From positions 1 through 18,767 of the forward strand of contig JBDHAB010000061.1 in NCBI GenBank assembly GCA_039588295.1: DNA of 18,767 nt, read 5' to 3'. Positions 6,982-16,262 of this stretch are shown here, in pieces. A program made the position numbers and the translations under genes. A model generated the notes under the pieces. That model was given only the letters and a program-made list of their open reading frames with translations. It had not been told where the DNA came from and ran no database searches. This DNA is from Gemmatimonadota bacterium. Its GTDB lineage: Bacteria; Gemmatimonadota; Gemmatimonadetes; Gemmatimonadales; GWC2-71-9. Within the stretch, counting starts at the first letter, position 1, and every line of letters begins with the position of its first letter.

Positions 6982-7403
6982 CCGTTGCCCTCTTCGAGAC
7001 GGGAGAGCTCGGCGGCCACGTCCATGTCCTCGACCGAGACGAGTCCACCCTCACCGTTGAGCGTGATCTCCTCCCGCACCTCCTGTTCACCCGTCCCCAG
7101 CTTGAGCACGTTGACCTGAATCCGCGTGCCGCCCTGGTTCCCGCGGTGGACGATCTGCTGCGAAGGCTTCCCCCAGCCGTACTCCAGGATCACGCGCGCG
7201 GCTGCGATGCGGGCGGAGCTGGAGTTGTGCGGGTCGCGCATGATGTGGAGGCAATCCAGGATCGCGTCCTGGGTATGCTCCTGGGCGAGCTGGCGAACGA
7301 GATTTTTCTGGTTCGCTTCGAGAGTCTTTACGACTTCGGCGTCGGAGAGGGGTCGGACGATCCCTCTGGCTCCCGAGTTGGGGGTTCCGGCTTTCTGACC
7401 CAT
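6978..7403 (-). CDS. terS: Probable terminase small subunit (141 aa)
   Basis: Directly upstream of and coupled to TerL. Helical LAQEHTQDAI...ARIAAARVILEYGWGKPSQ motif is common in proteins at this position. SD GGAGG. Confidence 0.7.
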   Translation of the reverse strand: MGQKAGTPNSGARGIVRPLSDAEVVKTLEANQKNLVRQLAQEHTQDAILDCLHIMRDPHNSSSARIAAARVILEYGWGKPSQQIVHRGNQGGTRIQVNVLKLGTGEQEVREEITLNGEGGLVSVEDMDVAAELSRLEEGNG

Positions 7404-7705
7404 CCTCCGAACTCCTGTAGCACACGCTCGCAGACTTCGAGCATCAGAAGGCGATTCTCGTCCGGGAGGTCATCGAAGGGCACGACGCAGCCGGCGCTGG
7501 TCGTCCAGCCGAAATCGGGCGCGAGCATCTCGTAGGTGTCGTGAAAGAACGTCGCGAGCTCGTGAGCGGTCGGCTGCTCGACCAGGCGGAAGATGCGGCC
7601 GGGCTCCATCCCCTCAAACGCCTTCTCGAGGTCCCGCTTCTCCTGCTCGCTCATCGGAGTGCGAACCACGAACGCCTCACGGACGTCCCCACCCTCTATG
7701 CTCAT
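7328..7705 (-). CDS. Hypothetical protein with a RyR-repeat-like motif (125 aa)
   Basis: LATFFHDTYEMLAPDFGW...VVPFDDLPDENRLLM resembles the LA...H..W....GW...LVPY..L.E..K pattern of RyR repeats. ATGA coupling upstream. Overlaps TerS by 76 nt. Confidence 0.6.
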   Translation of the reverse strand: MSIEGGDVREAFVVRTPMSEQEKRDLEKAFEGMEPGRIFRLVEQPTAHELATFFHDTYEMLAPDFGWTTSAGCVVPFDDLPDENRLLMLEVCERVLQEFGGWVRKPEPPTREPEGSSDPSPTPKS

Positions 7706-7872
7706 TTGCCCCTCGCTACGCGACCCATGAGGCTCTTTGAGCTGGGGCGCTTGCGGCGTTCACGCTTGCGGAATTGCTTGACGTTCCCGGCGTTGGAGGC
7801 CGTGCAGACGGCGTGGGGGTTCTTGGCCTTCCCCCGGACGTGCTCGACGCACCGCTTGTAGGCGGCAGGCAC
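7702..7872 (-). CDS. Small basic protein (56 aa) MPAAYKRCVEHVRGKAKNPHAVCTASNAGNVKQFRKRERRKRPSSKSLMGRVARGK
   Basis: Below the ORF-track cutoff. GTG at 7872 after a G-rich SD. Stop overlaps the next ATG (ATGA). The RCV..V.....NP.AVCTAS pattern is familiar from small phage proteins. Confidence 0.75.
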   Translation of the reverse strand: MPAAYKRCVEHVRGKAKNPHAVCTASNAGNVKQFRKRERRKRPSSKSLMGRVARGK

Positions 7873-7875
7873 GAG

Positions 7876-8076
7876 CTATCGCCCCCCTCCCGAGGTCGGG
7901 GCCTTGTTTTCGCACCCCTTCGTCTGATTCACGTTGTAGAGCGGATCGCCGCCGAATCCGGCCGTATCGCACCCGTTGGCGTGCTCCGAGTCGGTGCCTT
8001 CCTTCCCCTTCGTGGGGATCTTGGCCTCCCGGTGCGCGTCGCCCTGTTTCCCGCCGTATCCCTTGCCCTTCGGCAT
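7876..8076 (-). CDS. Small Gly/Lys-rich hypothetical protein (66 aa)
   Basis: Strong SD AAGGAGG 5 nt before ATG. Fills the operon without overlap. Confidence 0.7.
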   Translation of the reverse strand: MPKGKGYGGKQGDAHREAKIPTKGKEGTDSEHANGCDTAGFGGDPLYNVNQTKGCENKAPTSGGGR

Positions 8077-8123: not shown

Positions 8124-8465
8124 TCACGCCGCGCGCCGCCTCTGGACCGGCTTGAACACGAACCATTCGGCGTGAAGGTTGGGGCCGTCGTCCGCGACGT
8201 AGTGGAGGCACACGCGCTGGTCCTCCGCGAGCGACGCCATATCGGCGTCCGCGAGGTTCCCCTGGTAGTCGCCATCCGAGCCGCTGACGTAGGAGAGCGT
8301 CTTCGCCGCGACCAGCTCCGTGCTCTGGTCTGTGTCCAGGACCCGGCACGTCACGGCCGCGCTCGAGGTGTAGTAGTTGGCGTCGTCCTCTGCGAGCTGG
8401 GCGTTCGCCAGGCCGAGCAGCTCTAGGAGGTTGTCAGAGAAGAGGAAAAGCGGATCGCCGGCCAT
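8124..8465 (-). CDS. Putative beta-sandwich adaptor/virion protein (113 aa) of the fibre cassette
   Basis: TGATG coupling to the 1948-aa gene. AAVTCRVLD...LSYVSGSDGDYQG pattern resembles BppU-N/Ig-like adaptors (inference). Confidence 0.65.
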   Translation of the reverse strand: MAGDPLFLFSDNLLELLGLANAQLAEDDANYYTSSAAVTCRVLDTDQSTELVAAKTLSYVSGSDGDYQGNLADADMASLAEDQRVCLHYVADDGPNLHAEWFVFKPVQRRRAA

Positions 8466-11400
8466 CAGTCGTCCTCCCGCTTGTTGACCTTTGGATCGCC
8501 CGCGAGGGCTCCCTTCGTTCCCAGCTTACGGGACGCGAGGGCCGGCTTCGAGTCTGGAGTCCCGGCCAGGGCCGCGCGATTCGAGGGAAGCCCGATCAGC
8601 GTTCCGTAGAACTGCGTAATGAAGTCGAGCAGCGGGACCTGGCCCACCAGGCTCAGGACGCCGGCCGGGACCGTGATCGAGAAGGGCCCGAGTGTCGCGG
8701 TAGGCTCGCTCGCGCTGAGGGTCAGGCTCGCGCTCGAAACCTCGATGCTGAACGGGCCGAGGCTCGTGACCGGCACCTGGCCCGTGAGGCTCAGCGAGGC
8801 CGCGTTCACTTCGATGGAGAAGGGGCCGAAGCTGGTCACGGGGGCGAATCCGGTGAGATTCAGGGAAGCCGTCGGGACCACGACCGAGAAGGGCCCGAGG
8901 ACCGTCGGCACCTGGCCGGTCAGGGTGAGGGAGCCGCTCCCGGGCTGCACGAGCTCGTCCTCGGCGACCAGGAACTCCGCCATGACCAGCGACGCGCGAG
9001 TCGGGGCCCCGATGGTCTTGTGGAACTCGACGGTCTTCGTGCCCGCGCTCGTGACCTGGTGGTCCGCGACGGACCCGCTGCTCGAGCTGGACGTGTGGTC
9101 GATCTGTTCCGTGAAGTCGCTCAGGTCGTCCTGCGTCCAGGCGGAGCCAGCCGTTCCGGCCGTTCCGGCGGCGACTACGGCGACGAGGTACGCGCCGAGC
9201 GTTCCGTCGATCGTGTCGCTCATCGGGTTATCGGGGGGCTCTGCACCGAGCGTTTCTGTGTCCCCGAGTGGATCGCCTTGGTCGACGTTCTCGTACGTCG
9301 CGACGCTCCAGCGCTCGTTATTGGGAAGGTTCGACCAGCTCCAGGTCATCGCCTGTGAGCCGGCGAGAATGTCCGCGTCGAGCAAGTACCAGATTTCAGC
9401 TCCGGCCTTGAAGCCCGCACCTGTTTCGAGATTGACCGCCTTCGTGAGGTTGTTTCCGCCGAACTTGACCCAATTTAGGGTTGCCGATCCGGTGTCCTCC
9501 ATCTCGATCGTGACCACGAGCGCACGGTTCGTGCCGGCTCCCGCGGTGTGGTTGAAGGTCGTTCCTGGGTCCACATAGTCCGCCCAAGAGCCTACGCGCG
9601 CGACCACGTTGAGTCCGGGATCGGGGACCGGGACCTGGCCTGTCAGCGCCAGAGCTCCGGCGTCCGGGGTGATCGAGAACGGTCCGAGCGAGGAGATCGG
9701 CACGGCTGCGGTGAGCGTGAGCGTCGCCGAATCGGGCGTGACGCCGAACGGCCCGAGCGACGAGATCGGGGTCTGCCCGGCGAGCACCAGGTCGGCCTTG
9801 CCGACCGGAATCGTCTCTATCTCCTCCAGGTCCGCAATCGGCACCTGGCCGGTAAGTGCCAACGTCGCCGCGCCCGGTGTGATGTTGAACGGACCGAGAC
9901 TCAAAACGGGGATCTGCGCGGTGAGGATGAGCGCGGTCGATGCTGGACCGACCACCACGTCCTCTCCTGCAACGGGGACTTGGCCGGTCAGAGTCAGAGC
10001 CGTCGAGCCGACTATGATCTGGAACGGCCCGAGTGCGGGAGTCGGTGCAGCTCCGGTGATAGTCAGCGACGTCGAGTCGACCGTGATCGTGAAGGGACCG
10101 AGGGACACCGTGGGGGTCTGGCCTGCAAGTGTCAGAGTGGCACTTCCTACTTCGATGCTGAACGGCCCGAGCGACGGGACGGGCACTTGGCCCGTCAAAG
10201 TGAGCGCGCCGGCACCCGGGATCACCTCGACGTCCTCCGTTGTATCCGCGATCGGCACCTGGCCGGTCAGAACCAGCGCCCCCGCGGCGGGTGTGACGGA
10301 GAAGGGGCCTAGGCTCACGGTCGGCACCTGGCCGGAGAGAGTGAGCGTCGCGTTTGTGACCTGAATCGAGAAGGGGCCCAGGTCGGGCGTAGGCACCGCC
10401 GCGGTCAGCGTTAGCGTTGCGCTGCCGACCCCGATGGCGAACGGGCCCAGCGAAGGCGTCGGCACCTGGCCCGTGAGTACGAGTGCGGCGGCAGCCGGGG
10501 TGACGGAGAACGGACCTAGGGAGGACACGGGAGCGAACCCCGCGAGCGTCAGTGGCGTCGAGTCGACGAGGATTGCGCCAGTAACTACGTCCGCGACCGG
10601 AACCTGGCCGGTTAGAATCAGGGCGGCAGCGGCAGGCGTGATAGAGAAGGGACCGAGGTCAGGAGTGGGGACTTGGCCGGTCAGGGTGAGGGAGCCGCTG
10701 CCCGGCTGTACCAGCTCGTCCGTGGCGACCAGGAGCTCGACCATGAGCATCGCCGTACGGTTTGGAGCCCCGCCCGCGTTCTTGAACTCTGCCGTCTTCG
10801 TTCCGCTGCTCAGGACGTCCAACTGCGCGACCGATCCGCTGCTCCCGCTCGAGGCGTGATCGAGCACCTCGTTTAGATCGCTGCCGCTGTCCTGTGTCCA
10901 GGTATCCGTACCGAGCCCGCAGACGACGGCTACGATGTGGGAGTAGAGCGAGACCGATAGCGTGTCTGTGATGGGGTCTGGTGCGGGCGCCCCGGTGTTG
11001 ACCGCAGTATTCCCGATCGGGTCTGACTGATCGACATTCTCGTAGGTGGCAACGCTCCACCTCTCGTTATCCGGGGCCGCGGCCCACGTCCAGGTGAGCG
11101 TCTGCGAGCCCGCTGGGATATCGGCCTCTTTGAGGTACCAAAGATGCACCCCGACGTAAGTCCCGGGCCCCACGTTTATGCTGGTGGCTTTTGTCAGGGA
11201 GTTACCCCCGAAGGTCACGCTGGAGATAGATGCCGAGGTGTTGTCTTTCATCTCGACCGTCACCACGAGCAGACGATTCGTCCCGGCCTGGGCCGTGTGG
11301 GAGAAGCTCGTCCCGGGGTCTATGTACTCCGACCAGGAGCCGACGCGCTTGACCTGGCCGGCATCGACGTAGGGAAGCTGCGGCGTGAGCGTCAGATCCG

Positions 11401-14311
11401 TCTTTGCCACGGGAATCGTCACGTCAACCGAAACGTTCGCAACCGGGACCTGGCCGGTCAGCACGAGTGAGCCAGCGGCGGGAGTGATCGAGAAGGGTCC
11501 AAGCGAAGGCGTCGGAACCTGTCCAGAAAGCGTCAGCGCCGTGCTCCCGACTTCAATCGAGAATGGCCCTAGATCCGGCGTTGGAGCCGCTCCCGTGATC
11601 GTCAGGGAAGTGGAATCGACCGTGATTGTGAACGGACCGAGGGAGACGCTTGGAGTCTGCCCTGCGAGGGTGAGTGCCGTAGATCCCACCTCGATAGAGA
11701 ACGGACCGAGAGAGCTCACCGGGACCTGGCCGGTCAGCGCGAGCGCGGTGCTTGCGACCGGGATCGTGGTGTCCCCAGCCACGACGTCCACGACGGGGAT
11801 CTTCCCGGTGAGGGTGAGTGCGGCCGATCCAGGCTTCGGCGTTCGGTCGCCCGTCTGAATCGCCAGGTAGGTCCACTTCCTCGCGGTTGCAGCGACCGTC
11901 GTGTAGTTCAGCGTGAAGCCGTCCGAGTCGAGCGACGACGGCTCCGCCATGATCCCGACGTTTCCGGCGTTGTTCAGCGCCTTCAATCCGTCTCGGCTAT
12001 AGACCTGATTCGTGTTCGACTCGGCGACCGCATCCTGATCTGACCAGGAGTACGATGCCGAGTTGTCCGTGCCAACGATCGGCATCCCGAAGAATATGGC
12101 ACCCGCCTGGGTATCGGTTTTTTCGGAGTCAACCGTGTCGATCATTCCGCCGACGAGCATCAGATGAGAGGGCTCGAACCCAACCCCGGTGTACGCCTTT
12201 GTGCCGGTCGAGCCCCCCTTCGTGTCGATCGTGCCAACATCGACGCTGCGCCCCGCCGGCAGCTTCACGGCGAGGTAATGCAGCGTGATGCTCCCTGAAC
12301 TGACTCGCGTCGTCATCACGAACCCGGTCGCGGTCCATGAGGTGATCTCGGCTGCGCGTGTGCCGCCGAGACTTGTCGTGCGCGCGATGTACGAGGACGA
12401 GTGGAAGCCCACCGGCTGCATGTCGGGCACGGCATCGTCTGAGGAATAAGCCTGACAGCCTTGCGGGTTTCCGGTGACGTTCGCGGCGAATCCGACGCCC
12501 AGGTGAGCATCGGATGCGGGAGTAGTGGCCCCCAAAGCGTGCACTCCGATCAGAAAGTCCGCCTCGAAAGGCACATCGGTAGCCGTCGCCGTGGCGTCCT
12601 GCGTCGCGTTGCCGGTGAGGTGCCCGACGTAGAACTCGGCGTCGTCACCCCCGAACAGGACGATGAAGAACTTTTTGGAGGCCCCAACGTCCGCCACGTT
12701 CACCTTGATGCCGTCTTTGATCCAGTGGAGGTGCCAGAACTGCCCCTCCGTCAGACCGCCCGAGCTGGCATGGCGCTCGTAGAGTGGCACTCCGAGTGCA
12801 GATAAATCACCGTCACGCGATGTGTCTGCCGCTGCTTCGGCATCGTCGGCGTTTATATTGATCTGCCACGATTTCTCGGGCTCTGCGTACTGGTTCCGCC
12901 CGACGACGGCCCCCCAATTCGAGTGAACGTGCGCGGCAATCGTCTCGGCGGTGACGCCTGCTCCCCCAAACAGAAACGCCGCTTTCGGCCAGCCGAAGCC
13001 AGAAGAAGTGAACGTAGCTTCGCCGGTTGCGGTCGGCTCCGTCGCCTCGATGATGGCGACCTTGAAGTCGAAGCCCTGGTTGTCGGAGATGACGTAGGTG
13101 AACCAGGCGTTGTGGAGAAAGACCGTGTTCGTGTCGTCGTTCGCGTACGAGTTCGCGAGGAATCCCGTCGCGTTGCTCGGGGTGATGTGTTGCCCACCGA
13201 TCGTGCGCCAATCGTCTTGCGTGCTTAGCACCTTCCATTCGGTGCCCCACGTCCAGGTGCCCGACTGTGATGTGGTACGTCGGGTCCAGGGTTGGCCGGT
13301 GTTGCCGAGGAAGTTCTTCATGTAAGTAACCATGACTTCCTCGCCGGCCGGAGCGGAGCGATCCCACTGGATGATGACCTGATAGGTGGTCGTGTCGGCG
13401 GCTACGGGGTCCGTAATGTCCGTCTTGAACGTGAAGCCGCCGGTCGTATCGTCGTGGTCGGCCTCGAACACGTTTAGCGCGGAGGACGCCGACGGGGCAG
13501 CCTCCCATATCGCCACCAGGGCTTTCCCGTTGTCGGGTCGCACCATCGCGTCGAAGTTTTTGTAGGCGGCGCTCAGGATGTGTCCGCCCGACGCCCCCAT
13601 GTCCTGATCGCCGTCCCAATCCGGCGTACCCGCCCCCGCGTTGTACCAATTCATCGCGACCGTGTTCGCGTCAGGCGGGGTGTCCTGCCAGAGCACGAGC
13701 CACCAGTCGTCGGTGCTGTTCGACTCTCCGGCAGGAAGGAGGAGCCCCCAATCCGTCTGCTCGGTCGCTCGGCTCCACTTCGATGCGCCCTTTGCGGAGA
13801 AGCTCGCGGTTGCGCCCTTCGTGGTCGAGACGATGAAGAAGTGCGCGGCGTCGGTGTTGTTGACGCGGCAGACCGCGCCGACGTGCCCGGCACGGTTCAC
13901 CGAGATCGAGACGTGGTAGCGAGCCGGGGCACTGGAGGCTGCGCCCGCCTGGCTCGGGTCGAAGTTCTTTTCTGCCGTCGTGGTGAACGAGTCGGACGCC
14001 ATGTCGATCGTCCGGTAGTAGAACTGACCGTTGGACGATCCGTCGCGAGAGACGTACCCGACGTGCAGAAGACTCCCGGTGTCCCCGGGAGTTTCCCAAT
14101 CCGCGTGCGCGTCGATCTTCCACGCGGCACTCGTAAAGAAGCTGGTCAGCTCAGACCATGTTTCCCCGTAGTCGGTGCTCTTGCGGACGACCGCCGTCGT
14201 CGTACCGGTCTGGATGATCTCGATCATCCGGTTCTCGTAGGAGAACGGACCGACAATCCCCCACCACGTATTGCAGTTTGCGAAGGTCGTGCCTATCTGA
14301 ACTTCCGGCAC
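8465..14311 (-). CDS. Giant fibre/adhesin-like virion protein (1948 aa): N-terminal propeller-like domain, second beta domain, ~28 x ~23-aa repeats and two duplicated ~205-aa inserted domains
   Basis: Long open frame with a GTG start. Asp-box-like STDYGETWS near the N-terminus. GFGWPKA / VPFEADF / VGFEPSH internal motifs. LGPFSI.V.S.ALTLTGQVP repeats. Confidence 0.85.
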   Translation of the reverse strand: MPEVQIGTTFANCNTWWGIVGPFSYENRMIEIIQTGTTTAVVRKSTDYGETWSELTSFFTSAAWKIDAHADWETPGDTGSLLHVGYVSRDGSSNGQFYYRTIDMASDSFTTTAEKNFDPSQAGAASSAPARYHVSISVNRAGHVGAVCRVNNTDAAHFFIVSTTKGATASFSAKGASKWSRATEQTDWGLLLPAGESNSTDDWWLVLWQDTPPDANTVAMNWYNAGAGTPDWDGDQDMGASGGHILSAAYKNFDAMVRPDNGKALVAIWEAAPSASSALNVFEADHDDTTGGFTFKTDITDPVAADTTTYQVIIQWDRSAPAGEEVMVTYMKNFLGNTGQPWTRRTTSQSGTWTWGTEWKVLSTQDDWRTIGGQHITPSNATGFLANSYANDDTNTVFLHNAWFTYVISDNQGFDFKVAIIEATEPTATGEATFTSSGFGWPKAAFLFGGAGVTAETIAAHVHSNWGAVVGRNQYAEPEKSWQININADDAEAAADTSRDGDLSALGVPLYERHASSGGLTEGQFWHLHWIKDGIKVNVADVGASKKFFIVLFGGDDAEFYVGHLTGNATQDATATATDVPFEADFLIGVHALGATTPASDAHLGVGFAANVTGNPQGCQAYSSDDAVPDMQPVGFHSSSYIARTTSLGGTRAAEITSWTATGFVMTTRVSSGSITLHYLAVKLPAGRSVDVGTIDTKGGSTGTKAYTGVGFEPSHLMLVGGMIDTVDSEKTDTQAGAIFFGMPIVGTDNSASYSWSDQDAVAESNTNQVYSRDGLKALNNAGNVGIMAEPSSLDSDGFTLNYTTVAATARKWTYLAIQTGDRTPKPGSAALTLTGKIPVVDVVAGDTTIPVASTALALTGQVPVSSLGPFSIEVGSTALTLAGQTPSVSLGPFTITVDSTSLTITGAAPTPDLGPFSIEVGSTALTLSGQVPTPSLGPFSITPAAGSLVLTGQVPVANVSVDVTIPVAKTDLTLTPQLPYVDAGQVKRVGSWSEYIDPGTSFSHTAQAGTNRLLVVTVEMKDNTSASISSVTFGGNSLTKATSINVGPGTYVGVHLWYLKEADIPAGSQTLTWTWAAAPDNERWSVATYENVDQSDPIGNTAVNTGAPAPDPITDTLSVSLYSHIVAVVCGLGTDTWTQDSGSDLNEVLDHASSGSSGSVAQLDVLSSGTKTAEFKNAGGAPNRTAMLMVELLVATDELVQPGSGSLTLTGQVPTPDLGPFSITPAAAALILTGQVPVADVVTGAILVDSTPLTLAGFAPVSSLGPFSVTPAAAALVLTGQVPTPSLGPFAIGVGSATLTLTAAVPTPDLGPFSIQVTNATLTLSGQVPTVSLGPFSVTPAAGALVLTGQVPIADTTEDVEVIPGAGALTLTGQVPVPSLGPFSIEVGSATLTLAGQTPTVSLGPFTITVDSTSLTITGAAPTPALGPFQIIVGSTALTLTGQVPVAGEDVVVGPASTALILTAQIPVLSLGPFNITPGAATLALTGQVPIADLEEIETIPVGKADLVLAGQTPISSLGPFGVTPDSATLTLTAAVPISSLGPFSITPDAGALALTGQVPVPDPGLNVVARVGSWADYVDPGTTFNHTAGAGTNRALVVTIEMEDTGSATLNWVKFGGNNLTKAVNLETGAGFKAGAEIWYLLDADILAGSQAMTWSWSNLPNNERWSVATYENVDQGDPLGDTETLGAEPPDNPMSDTIDGTLGAYLVAVVAAGTAGTAGSAWTQDDLSDFTEQIDHTSSSSSGSVADHQVTSAGTKTVEFHKTIGAPTRASLVMAEFLVAEDELVQPGSGSLTLTGQVPTVLGPFSVVVPTASLNLTGFAPVTSFGPFSIEVNAASLSLTGQVPVTSLGPFSIEVSSASLTLSASEPTATLGPFSITVPAGVLSLVGQVPLLDFITQFYGTLIGLPSNRAALAGTPDSKPALASRKLGTKGALAGDPKVNKREDD
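8625..11845 (-). repeat. Degenerate ~69-bp (23-aa) coding repeats in three blocks (about 7, 16 and 5 units) separated by two paralogous domains
   Basis: Counted by eye from the translation. Blocks at roughly 11845-11360, 10720-9620 and 8960-8625. Consensus LGPFSI(E/T)(V/P)xx(A/S)LTL(T/A)GQVPxxx. Confidence 0.85.
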
Positions 14312-14314
14312 GGG

Positions 14315-14626
14315 TTAGATCCCGAAGCGCGTGCGTAGCTCCGCCTTCGTGGTGTAGTGGTAGCCGGCTTCGCCGAGCAGCAGAACGTCGTGGAGTGCCT
14401 GCGAGAATTTGAACCGTTCCGCCGCTGGCATCGCCTGGCCGGCCGAGATCAACGCATCCAGCTCCGTCTCGTCCTCGGCAGACAGGTTGAACGCGGTCAC
14501 GATCTGCGCGCGAGTGACTTCCCCGCGCTCCAGCTCGCCCATCGCGGCCATGAAGGCGTGAACGCCAATCTTCCCGCCTACCGCTGGGTCCTGAGTGGTG
14601 TGGTAGAGCCGGTCTACGAGGCCCAT
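14315..14626 (-). CDS. Hypothetical helical protein (103 aa), possible fibre chaperone/partner
   Basis: Strong SD GGAGGAG. Ends 3 nt before the giant gene start. Function is inferred from position only. Confidence 0.75.
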   Translation of the reverse strand: MGLVDRLYHTTQDPAVGGKIGVHAFMAAMGELERGEVTRAQIVTAFNLSAEDETELDALISAGQAMPAAERFKFSQALHDVLLLGEAGYHYTTKAELRTRFGI

Positions 14627-14656
14627 CGCTCCTCCGATCCAGCGGGGCGATTTGGC

Positions 14657-15103
14657 CTAGCCGCTGAGCTGGAAATACCCGTTGGCGTGAATCTGAATCG
14701 TCAGCGTGTTCCCGTCGTTCACCGTCACGTTCGCGGGAGTGTTGTCGAGCAGCGAGTAGCTCACGAGCGGATCGAGCGGCGAGGCAGGAGTGTCATCCCA
14801 CAGAACCGCGAACCGGCAGATGATCGACCCGCCGGCAGCGGTCCAGGTCGGATCGTCCGAGTCGAATGTCACGGTCCCCGAAGACTCGACCCACGTCCGC
14901 GTCACCGCGTCCCCGCCGGTCAAGTACCCGAACTGCTGGGCGTGCTCGTTCGTCAGGTCCCCCTTGAGTGAGTTCGTCAGCGTCGCGGCGTTCGACGTGT
15001 CCAGGTACAGGGCGACCTTGAAGGCATCGCCGTCCAGGTCCATCGACCCGTCGGCCATGTACTCCTTGAACTTGTTGTAGTGCTTCCACGCATCGGCGGC
15101 CAT
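14657..15103 (-). CDS. Conserved beta-rich phage virion protein (148 aa), candidate fibre subunit
   Basis: Pattern W..YN.FK....DG..DLD.D.FKVAL...GY..GG.....W....G.VTFD..DPTWTA.GGSI..R.AVL.DDT...DPLV....LD....TV..G.TLTI.....G.F.L is a recognisable family that typically precedes long repeat proteins. SD GGAGGG. Confidence 0.85.
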   Translation of the reverse strand: MAADAWKHYNKFKEYMADGSMDLDGDAFKVALYLDTSNAATLTNSLKGDLTNEHAQQFGYLTGGDAVTRTWVESSGTVTFDSDDPTWTAAGGSIICRFAVLWDDTPASPLDPLVSYSLLDNTPANVTVNDGNTLTIQIHANGYFQLSG

Positions 15104-15104
15104 G

Positions 15105-15344
15105 TCAGTTGCCCTCCAGGCTCAGCTCCGCGGGCGGGATCGTGATGCTCACGTCCCCCGCGCGGCGCTTGCGAAGTGCGGCCACCCGAGCCTCGGCGTG
15201 GGCCAGCTCCAGGGACTCCCTGAGCTCCCCGATCGTCTTCTTGATCTTCTCGGCTCGCGGACCACTCACGGTCCCCAGCCGGGCCGTCAGCTTCGCGATG
15301 CTGTAGCGGACCCTCTCAGATCGTAGCGATGCCTTGTCCGGCAT
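15105..15344 (-). CDS. Small basic helical protein (79 aa) ending in one copy of the fibre-repeat-like strand (GDVSITIPPAELSLEGN)
   Basis: SD GGAGGAGG before ATG. Stop 1 nt before the next ATG. Confidence 0.75.
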   Translation of the reverse strand: MPDKASLRSERVRYSIAKLTARLGTVSGPRAEKIKKTIGELRESLELAHAEARVAALRKRRAGDVSITIPPAELSLEGN

Positions 15345-15615
15345 TTGGAGCCTCCTCCAGTGGTATCCCCACGATTGTCAGCTTGGGCTTCAATCGGAAG
15401 TACCGCTTGCACGTCGTACAGAACGGGGGCTCTTTCGCCTCGAACGCCACCGTCCCGTCCGCGGATCGGTCCAGGCGGATGATGGCCGCGCCGATCGGCT
15501 CGTACGGACACGCGATCCGATGGAACTCGGACGTCTTGCCGCGACCGAGCGTTTCGATCCGTTGCTTCGGCAGGGCCTTCGGGCCGGATAGTTCGTCCCC
15601 CACGGGGACGAGCAT
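15316..15615 (-). CDS. Hypothetical protein (99 aa) with H-x3-C and CxxC (possible zinc ribbon); first gene of the leftward operon
   Basis: Coding-like codon usage, with FHRIACP and FCTTCKR. The SD-like GAGGT abuts the ATG, so the start is less certain. Confidence 0.6.
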   Translation of the reverse strand: MLVPVGDELSGPKALPKQRIETLGRGKTSEFHRIACPYEPIGAAIIRLDRSADGTVAFEAKEPPFCTTCKRYFRLKPKLTIVGIPLEEAPNAGQGIATI

Positions 15616-15750: not shown

Positions 15751-16011
15751 ATGGGGACGGACCGACCAGGCTGCTCAGGACTCCCGGAAAGCGTGTTCAC
15801 GATCGACCGGGACGATCACGGCGCGATCTACGTCTCCGTCCGCGGCGGCCCCACGCTCCTACTCCTCGGGGCGATCACCGCGCGCGACCTGAGCCAGAAC
15901 CAGGTGCTCCCCTTCATCCGGGACCGGCTCGAGGAGTACGTTGACCAGGGCGCGATCCCGGAGGATATCGCCCGCCGAATCCACGAAACCCTATCCGAGG
16001 AGGACCCATGA
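15751..16011 (+). CDS. Hypothetical protein (86 aa; alternative GTG start at 15793)
   Basis: Coding-like codons from 15793 onward. ATGA coupling to the next gene. Promoter immediately upstream. Confidence 0.7.
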   Translation: MGTDRPGCSGLPESVFTIDRDDHGAIYVSVRGGPTLLLLGAITARDLSQNQVLPFIRDRLEEYVDQGAIPEDIARRIHETLSEEDP

Positions 16012-16262
16012 CACAGCCAGAGAGCCCATCCGAACGTCCGAGCCCGATCTCCGCGCTGAGGCTCGGGGACTGGTTCACCCACCACCCGCCCAAGAATGAC
16101 GAGCAGATCCAGGGCTACGTCCAGATCCGCAACGCCGGGCACGACTTCGCGCGGACCATCGTCGCGAACTGCCCGCCGAGTGCGGACACGACCGCGGCGG
16201 TCCGCAAGGTCCGCGAGGCGGTGATGACGGCGAACGCCGCTATCGCCTGCGAGGGCCGGTGA
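16008..16262 (+). CDS. Acb2/Tad1-like helical-hairpin protein (84 aa), candidate cyclic-nucleotide sponge (anti-CBASS/anti-Thoeris)
   Basis: WFTHHPP...Q...Y..IR.....FA..I...CP.SADTTAAVRKVREAVMTANAAIA matches the FTYH-P...SRE.S.A.TKLEEA.MWANA.IA family pattern. Strong SD GAGGAGG. Confidence 0.65.
   Translation: MTQPESPSERPSPISALRLGDWFTHHPPKNDEQIQGYVQIRNAGHDFARTIVANCPPSADTTAAVRKVREAVMTANAAIACEGR

Follow-up and report, generated by a model that had tools for sequence, protein, structure and literature searches.

A phage contig from a Gemmatimonadota assembly encodes a probable beads-on-a-rope virion fibre with 28 mirror-symmetric docking repeats

The 18,767-nucleotide stretch analysed here (the window) is one whole contig (JBDHAB010000061.1, C61) of the 4.5-Mb Gemmatimonadota bacterium assembly GCA_039588295.1, and its source phage is uncultured. 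The late phage region lies on the minus strand, where a module of rope and bead genes is followed by genes for the small and large terminase, an SU10-type portal, a scaffold and an SU10-type major capsid protein; the contig ends soon after the capsid genes, ahead of any tail gene. The module encodes proteins of 79, 148, 103, 1948 and 113 amino acids (aa), all on the minus strand, with the coordinates, lengths and gene order given in an initial annotation made from the DNA letters, and a single nucleotide separates the stop of the 79-aa gene from the start of the 148-aa gene. We propose that the 1948-aa protein is a rope carrying 28 pseudo-palindromic repeats, each clasped by a dimer of the 148-aa protein (the bead), and that the two together probably form a flexible beads-on-a-rope virion fibre. 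Other contigs of the assembly gave no match for 8 of the contig's proteins that were tried. Between positions 7000 and 16200 no sigma-70 promoter match was obtained, and terminator matches were at chance level (5 against 4.4). The features of the module are as follows.

8124..8465, minus strand: 113-aa protein, a candidate immunoglobulin (Ig)-like collar or adaptor from its position and an ESM lead; its start overlaps the rope stop
8465..14311, minus strand: 1948-aa rope protein, with 28 docking units, interleaved globular domains and a short C-terminal tail
8468..8629, minus strand: C-terminal 54-residue tail of the rope, which may be an anchor peptide for the 113-aa protein
8630..8959, minus strand: repeat array 3, 5 units, residues 1785-1894
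8960..9619, minus strand: inserted globular domain, copy B, with no Pfam or PHROG match
9626..10720, minus strand: repeat array 2, 16 units, residues 1198-1562, of which residues 1265-1333 were used in the complex model
10721..11359, minus strand: inserted globular domain, copy A, matching phrog_2106 ('minor tail protein', expectation value (E) 2.7e-6) and no Pfam family
11369..11848, minus strand: repeat array 1, 7 units, residues 822-981
11849..14311, minus strand: N-terminal ~820 residues of the rope, with no Pfam or PHROG family
14315..14626, minus strand: 103-aa protein between bead and rope
14657..15103, minus strand: 148-aa bead subunit (phrog_644; gp80/whisker-like fold), a predicted two-fold dimer on the rope
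15105..15344, minus strand: 79-aa protein, with a charged, helical-looking body and a C-terminal cut-off docking unit (15108-15155)
15316..15615, minus strand: 99-aa four-cysteine protein of uncertain start codon, upstream of the 79-aa gene

About 28 copies of a motif of about 23 residues had been noticed in the 1948-aa protein, and exactly 28 units were counted, in arrays of 7, 16 and 5; what separates the arrays is a ~220-aa globular domain, present twice, with 55% identity between its copies. The spacing of units within arrays was 23 residues in 19 of 25 cases and 22-25 in the others. In DNA the 28 units are at most 86% identical (mean 53%), and for this reason it is improbable that faulty assembly produced the count. 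A profile built from these units, with the giant rope in its training set, found two or more units in only one of 22,181 six-frame open reading frames (ORFs) from the whole assembly (4.66 M residues), which was the rope itself. The unit motif is mirror-symmetric, reading V-x-P-x-x-G-x-L-T-L-x-G-x-x-P-x-V. No Pfam or PHROG family was found for the rope taken whole or for the 79-, 103-, 113- and 99-aa proteins, and searching solved structures by sequence was unproductive for the rope, the rope profile, the bead and the bead profile.

The 148-aa bead matches phrog_644 (E 7e-26), a family that comprises 4,477 clusters when grouped at 50% identity (E up to 0.001). Its AlphaFold2 model (predicted local distance difference test (pLDDT) 95.7) has a helix at residues 10-18 followed by strands, and so shows the N-terminal helix and beta-sandwich of the gp80/whisker fold that mark the subunits of rope-and-bead fibres. 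Among 48,161 solved chains the best fold match (Z 12.1) was to one domain within a Klebsiella phage baseplate chain of 1031 residues, and matches were also found to chain 8jou_a of GP4 gp80 (Z 8.8, root mean square deviation 3.0, 117 residues aligned), the Bxb1 tail-tip chain 9d93_Ra (Z 8.1) and the Sf14 neck chain 9c39_K (Z 6.4), with unrelated rows below 4. The top Foldseek match was again 8jou_a (E 0.041, probability 0.96), a 140-aa gp80 present in 10 copies in its structure, and a language-model search placed a Gp80 cluster at 0.85, as a lead only.

The mechanism behind such a module has already been published, between 2023 and 2026. In fibres of this kind the beads pair through their N-termini as two-fold dimers. 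In Bas63 the whisker monomer is an N-terminal helix with an incomplete sandwich, and whisker dimers are strung on a rope 'such as beads on a string', with the rope completing the sandwiches and an Ig-like collar anchoring it (PMC12609058); the whiskers of Sf14 are shown in PMC11821841. The chain-like fibre of A1002 has 11 dimers on its rope and that of GP4 has five, with three resolved in VP1, and the A1002 rope uses 226-268 residues for its 11 dimers, or ~20-24 per dimer (PMC13730344). In the initial annotation the giant protein was pictured as a thread whose repeats the 148-aa protein binds through strand addition, and this picture is supported both by these solved structural relatives (PMC12609058, PMC13730344) and by modelling of the complex.

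The bead and repeat complex, whose modelling had been suggested with that annotation, scored 0.84 for three beads and three rope units (residues 1265-1333; runs of 0.86, 0.63 and 0.84), compared with 0.02 for the best of 3 controls; the mark set for this score is reached by 116 of 157 solved pairs and by 2 of 215 mismatched pairs. The runs shared at least 65% of contacts and the partner pLDDT was at least 53. In the model the rope follows bead strands 132-148, bead residues 1-8 also lie at the interface, and the three beads cover only rope residues 11-50 (40 residues, ~13 per bead). Two of the bead copies contact the rope in mirror image about T37 (bead-rope contacts 136-31/136-43, 144-33/144-41, 144-34/144-40, 144-36/144-38 and 145-35/145-39), with rope V31 and P43 both against bead residue 136, and rope residues -6 and +6 are predicted to occupy equivalent pockets (W6, L117, I136), one in each monomer. 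It is in the model alone that the rope appears as an extended chain along the bead sheets, at ~20-25 residues per dimer, and the repeat period is 22-25.

The centre of this modelled symmetry is also the centre of the mirror symmetry in the repeats themselves. From sequence only, 644 units from 68 ropes gave a mirror score of 0.53 at that centre, compared with at most 0.27 at 24 other centres, and only 22 of 40,320 column permutations reached 0.53; the window's own 28 units scored 0.35 against 0.15. This suggests that each repeat holds a two-fold pair of beads, and a symmetric site read by a two-fold dimer would therefore place about 56 beads on each rope rather than 28, so that the stoichiometry of 28:1 expected at first gives way to about 56:1. 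From the textbook rise, a fully extended 23-residue strand measures ~7.5 nm. Between the 2.7 nm per dimer of A1002 (300 Å over 11; PMC13730344) and that extended strand per repeat, the fibre would be roughly 75-210 nm long, with its length set by the number of repeats, and the rope may in this way act as a length ruler.

The same fibre could be built with one bead per repeat (28:1), each dimer spanning two units, and one observation favours this and counts against a dimer on every repeat: GP4 gp79, by our own identification the likely GP4 rope, shows about ten 20-22-residue units for the five reported dimers (PMC13730344), which would fit one monomer per unit. We nevertheless regard this arrangement as very improbable, as three beads cover only 40 residues in the model with two of them symmetric on one unit, the unit is itself internally mirror-symmetric, and A1002 uses ~20-24 residues for each dimer (PMC13730344).

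Co-occurrence of bead and rope genes, for which a neighbourhood survey had been proposed, was examined in 94 distinct beads that remained from 104 bead loci and some further ones after removal of duplicates, the window locus, rope-first loci and named phage records; 87 of them score at least 120 bits and 7 are distant, and 41 of the 87 have 3 kb on both sides. A protein with at least two rope units was found beside the bead in 66 of the 87 loci and in 38 of the 41 well-flanked ones, bearing out the expected co-occurrence, with a median bead-to-rope gap of 305 bp and from 2 to 36 units per rope. Rope-first matches carried a bead next door where this was checked (L124 and the Gordonia phages PatrickStar and Gibbles); a rope-first collection scan with the window array gave 0 loci, these scans being thin, and queries of the collections with single ropes yielded 3 and 2 loci, L124 being the sole new one. 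The Pfam family Gp77, that of the GP4 adaptor, was above its cut-off beside a bead or rope in L022, L026, L030, L044, L050 and L124, and in L097 Gp77 was just below the cut-off and fused to the rope. No natural bead-rope fusion was found among 8,000 scored candidates, and the search gave 7 longer proteins, including two tandem bead-bead fusions.

Some side observations from these loci concern the beads. Two bead paralogues occur per locus in L035, L058, L065, L091 and L118, and P0125 and P0127 are fused two-bead proteins; such paralogues and fusions bring to mind A1002, with its two types of bead, and a covalently linked dimer. In P0123, P0126 and P0121 the bead is fused to large additional domains, and therefore beads, like ropes, can carry payload. 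In marine podophage-like loci (L006, L011, L019; Roseobacter phage CRP-901 gp53/gp51) a glycine-rich tandem-repeat protein lies two genes from a distant phrog_644 bead, and these repeat proteins are a probable third rope type.

The C-terminal tail of the 79-aa protein had been described as resembling one repeat unit, and the resemblance is real, but the unit is cut off and only its left three quarters are present. On the left 15 profile columns the tail scored 19.0 bits, at about the 25th percentile of true units, against a maximum of 8.8 for 742 control small ORFs; on the full 19-column unit it scored 11.8 bits compared with 20-40 for the 28 rope units, because the tail stops early. Small genes immediately upstream of a bead numbered 47, and 8 of them passed the 99th percentile of the controls, compared with 8 of the 742 controls (Fisher p 8e-7, kinship uncorrected); 6 exceeded the control maximum and 39 fell below the 99th percentile. 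All 8 aligned strand-bearing relatives, and the window copy, end 0-2 residues past the +3 glycine position and before the +6 proline, which the model places in the pocket of the second monomer. Lone units like those of the local rope were seen by eye in the small gene that precedes the L014/L015 bead, at its end, and at the start of gp7 of the satellite phage MiniFlayer. Conservation of the terminal strand had been set beforehand as a test, and it held in part: the strand recurs in relatives, but similar helical proteins at the same position lack it in five loci (L020, L025, L028, L044, L045; weak homology, E 0.07-4) and most loci have no such gene.

From these sequences the 79-aa strand seems rather likely to bind a bead dimer through its cut-off unit, with one pocket filled and the other empty. 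The protein is probably optional, and to be read as a placeholder or a cap; that it is a placeholder displaced by the rope we suggest only tentatively. The idea that the rope N-terminus supplies the half-site absent from the 79-aa protein was rejected, as such a half-site was not common to the rope N-termini in L022, L026, L030, L032, L050 and L084.

It is quite possible, if not what we favour, that the 79-aa protein functions through its helical body and that its terminal strand is dispensable and inherited in one clade, given the strandless helical proteins in the five loci listed above (E 0.07-4) and the fact that the six best strand scores all lie beside close-kin beads (at least 214 bits); set against this are the enrichment of the strand (8 of 47 against 8 of 742, at the same kinship-uncorrected p of 8e-7), its presence in two helical subfamilies that barely match each other, and the similar lone units seen by eye beside distant beads (L015, MiniFlayer gp7). 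A more doubtful alternative is a structural mini-rope or tag, which would stay in the particle, its helical body being tethered to the virion or fibre end by a single bead dimer; the left half-site does score like a true unit, but the consistent cut before the +6 proline is more in keeping with weak, displaceable binding than with a permanent site.

That the repeats instead fold by themselves, for example as a homotrimeric beta-spiral shaft, with the 148-aa protein a separate fibre-base or collar piece, is highly unlikely: the bead fold does match baseplate and tail-collar fibre domains too, only a rope monomer was folded, and beads fused to other domains exist (P0123, P0126), but three rope units folded alone as a monomer gave an extended chain with zero secondary structure (predicted template modelling score 0.30), the complex score is strong and specific, a lone cut-off unit on a separate small protein beside the bead makes sense only as a bead ligand, and distant beads adjoin ropes with different motifs, where single-unit small proteins resemble the local motif (MiniFlayer, L015; by eye).

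Several points nonetheless weigh against the bead dimer on every repeat of a virion fibre. The top fold match of the bead is a baseplate-chain domain and tail-collar fibre domains also match its fold, and therefore the fold alone does not imply a bead. The window bead did not match Pfam PF23140 Gp80 (cut-off 27 bits), none of 118 bead homologues matched Pfam Gp80 at E up to 0.1, and the bead against the Gp80 hidden Markov model gave 2.6 bits and an HHalign probability below 1%. The pass of the complex model may reflect likeness to the solved GP4, Sf14 and Bas63 complexes; its calibration was with single-chain pairs and the bead-rope job had 3+1 chains with custom alignments, and the bead dimer is read from rope contacts only. 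Among the well-flanked loci 3 of 41 are without the motif (L004, L035 and L091, the last with divergent units seen by eye), and two units of the window motif occur beside none of the 7 distant beads, other tandem repeats being seen by eye near those of L005, L006, L011, L013 and L015; the loci are also kin, so that the counts show linkage and not independent origin. Placement on the virion is read from genes alone, on a contig that ends before any tail gene. Lastly the period of 23 is atypical, as 473 of 486 short unit spacings elsewhere are even.

On that last subject, ropes in L001-L096 have spacings of 20, 22 or 24 in 471 of the 486 short spacings, and the window rope reaches its period of 23 via a Gly-Pro linker. 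A period of 23 may alter the twist between successive dimers.

In the fibre that we propose, two-fold dimers of the 148-aa protein would clasp each repeat of the 1948-aa rope, the globular domains would be displayed between runs of beads, the rope would probably be held on the particle by the 113-aa protein through its C-terminal anchor, and the fibre would likely serve first contact with the host. The inserted globular domains may act in adhesion or receptor binding. The N-terminal ~820 residues are probably a distal head, going by their inferred position; they contain a single Asp-box-like motif at residue 45, and residues ~420-820 are common to the N-terminal parts of the ropes in L022 and L096.

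Comparison of the module with chaperone-usher pili, as first made, is better replaced by comparison with the rope-and-bead fibre of GP4, Bas63 and A1002, a kind already described. Each subunit of such a pilus provides the following one with its N-terminal extension as donor, and a dedicated chaperone and an outer-membrane usher take part. The likeness is that a beta-sandwich left incomplete in one chain is filled by a strand of a second chain. In the window, however, a single long chain of its own, and not every subunit, supplies the donor strands, no extension precedes the bead fold, and the gene would set the length; a scan of 22 window proteins found no Pfam family of ushers or pilus chaperones.

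The closest comparison is with Fiber I of the Ralstonia podophage GP4 (gp80 dimers, gp77 adaptor; PDB 8JOU), which has the same bead fold and a separate rope gene beside the bead gene (PMC13730344, PMC12609058), and Gp77 adaptors likewise occur in 6 loci related to the window. In contrast to GP4, the window bead is not linked by sequence to Pfam Gp80, its rope has a different motif (gp79 has zero units scoring at least 0 bits), there are 28 sites compared with 5 reported dimers (PMC13730344), and the rope has large domains between its runs and is accompanied by a cut-off-unit protein. The collar-whiskers of Bas63 and Sf14 (Ounavirinae) share the helix and sandwich monomer, and in our model too the N-terminal residues 1-8 of the bead are at the interface, but their rope is the N-terminal arm of an Ig-like collar holding two dimers, whereas that of the window is a separate 1948-aa chain (PMC12609058). 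The Pseudomonas podophage A1002 (gp40/gp41 dimers, nozzle-rope gp39) has a 147-aa bead whose dimers add to beta-sheets with the rope, but the rope is fused to half of the nozzle, with 11 dimers and two bead types (PMC13730344). The 'bead-chain' fibre of A-1(L) is built of trimers and hence is a different thing (PMC10966104), and the capsid-fibre proteins of 7-7-1 are unidentified in the portions of text available among PMC12796354, PMC13252515 and PMC13419713. What is new here is a bead family unrelated by sequence, a 28-site palindromic rope with inserted domains and an optional cut-off-site protein; the architecture itself is known. In PMC13730344 itself both 'repeat' and 'palindrom' occur 0 times, and the supplements of that paper and of PMC12609058 may already show the rope motif. 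A literature search, outside which most subscription papers lay, found neither a palindromic rope motif nor a chaperone for such fibres.

The same anatomy was found in cultured phages. In the Caulobacter phage phiCbK, gp75 is a bead homologue (HHalign 98.4%; phrog_644) and gp72 a true Gp80 (61 bits; E 7e-5 to 8jou_a), and both bead genes lie before that of gp76 (L016 8918-20876 holds all three). The adjacent gp76, of 2799 aa, has 31 detected, proline-punctuated units in residues 1711-2545, mostly 22-24 apart and with gaps for ~5 more; its seed motif occurs 23 times compared with a mean of 1.65 and a maximum of 6 in 500 shuffles, although the self-trained profile also took 24 matches outside the region, mostly glycine-rich noise. 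The head filament of phiCbK measures ~200 nm, and gp76 alone was proposed as the candidate for it (PMC3556154); the eight detected virion proteins include none of gp72, gp75 and gp76, and those authors suggest that the filament was lost in purification (PMC3556154). The 31-36 sites of gp76 would give 85-270 nm, and it is a testable prediction from these sequences that the head filament consists of a gp76 rope with gp72/gp75 beads, a link of gp72 or gp75 to the filament that the literature search, with the coverage given above, did not find.

MiniFlayer (L128 5186-10334, gp6-gp9) has a bead, gp6 (phrog_644, 152 bits), and the 68-aa gp7, which starts with one unit. Its 1376-aa rope, gp8, carries two LamG domains, and the 11 units detected in gp8 follow a shorter palindrome (mirror score 0.67); a further protein, of 111 aa, bears the annotation 'tail fiber'. 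These genes have been called a possible adsorption module (PMC10690885), and the module proposed for gripping the neck of the helper has, as judged from its genes, a rope-and-bead anatomy. Beads and ropes were also observed in Gordonia phage PatrickStar (gp38 and gp39, L127 8302-10386; gp39 has nine units of period 24) and in mycobacteriophage MooMoo (gp20 and gp21, L017 5973-7432; gp20 has four weak units), and the two phages are ready test systems.

Of the neighbouring small proteins, the 113-aa protein is the likely anchor of the rope, going by its gene, which occupies the position of Gp77- and BppU-like Ig proteins in related loci, where many ropes have a short non-repeat C-terminal tail followed by a small Ig-like gene. 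Its ESM lead was the BppU_N cluster at 0.88 (below the 0.9 line; 27% of cluster members, a low recognition value), HHalign with a two-sequence profile was uninformative (less than 1%), and the homologue search gave zero viral loci in the collection scan and one homologue. For the 103-aa protein too a single homologue was found (E 4e-9), whose gene immediately precedes that of the L022 rope. The 99-aa four-cysteine protein is probably zinc-binding, to judge from its cysteines, and it recurs just upstream of bead genes in at least five distinct loci, with homologues in L020, L030, L031, L033 and L045 (E 6e-14 to 0.008).

Outside the module, two short charged ORFs of 66 and 56 aa with no family match (7876-8076 and 7702-7872, minus strand) lie between the module and the terminase genes, and lysine-rich short genes like them come after the module in L033 and L049. 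At 16008-16262, on the plus strand, an 84-aa protein has an Acb2/Tad1 hairpin domain (43.3 bits, above the Pfam cut-off) and is likely, from this domain, a sponge for CBASS/Thoeris signal molecules; its gene belongs to a small plus-strand gene group pointing away from the late genes.

Taken jointly, phrog_644 may be a fibre kit of general use, its bead dimers placed by a mirror-symmetric peptide code, the 79-aa protein may be the first chaperone known for the assembly of such fibres, with a three-quarter site that keeps a bead dimer in place until it is displaced by a complete site on the rope, and the same kit may build the flagellum-binding head filament of phiCbK and the helper-neck fibre of MiniFlayer; we consider this whole scheme unlikely as it stands. 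The analysis assigns a likely job to a large unannotated family, phrog_644, and offers a readable sequence rule for bead sites, by which bead number and fibre length would be predictable from genomes. To the long-standing question of what the ~200-nm phiCbK head filament is made of, it brings specific candidate genes. Should the cut-off unit indeed be a placeholder, it would represent an assembly step absent from the available text of the structure papers on such fibres (PMC12609058, PMC13730344), and a rope with a programmable number of sites and inserted domains would be a simple display scaffold.

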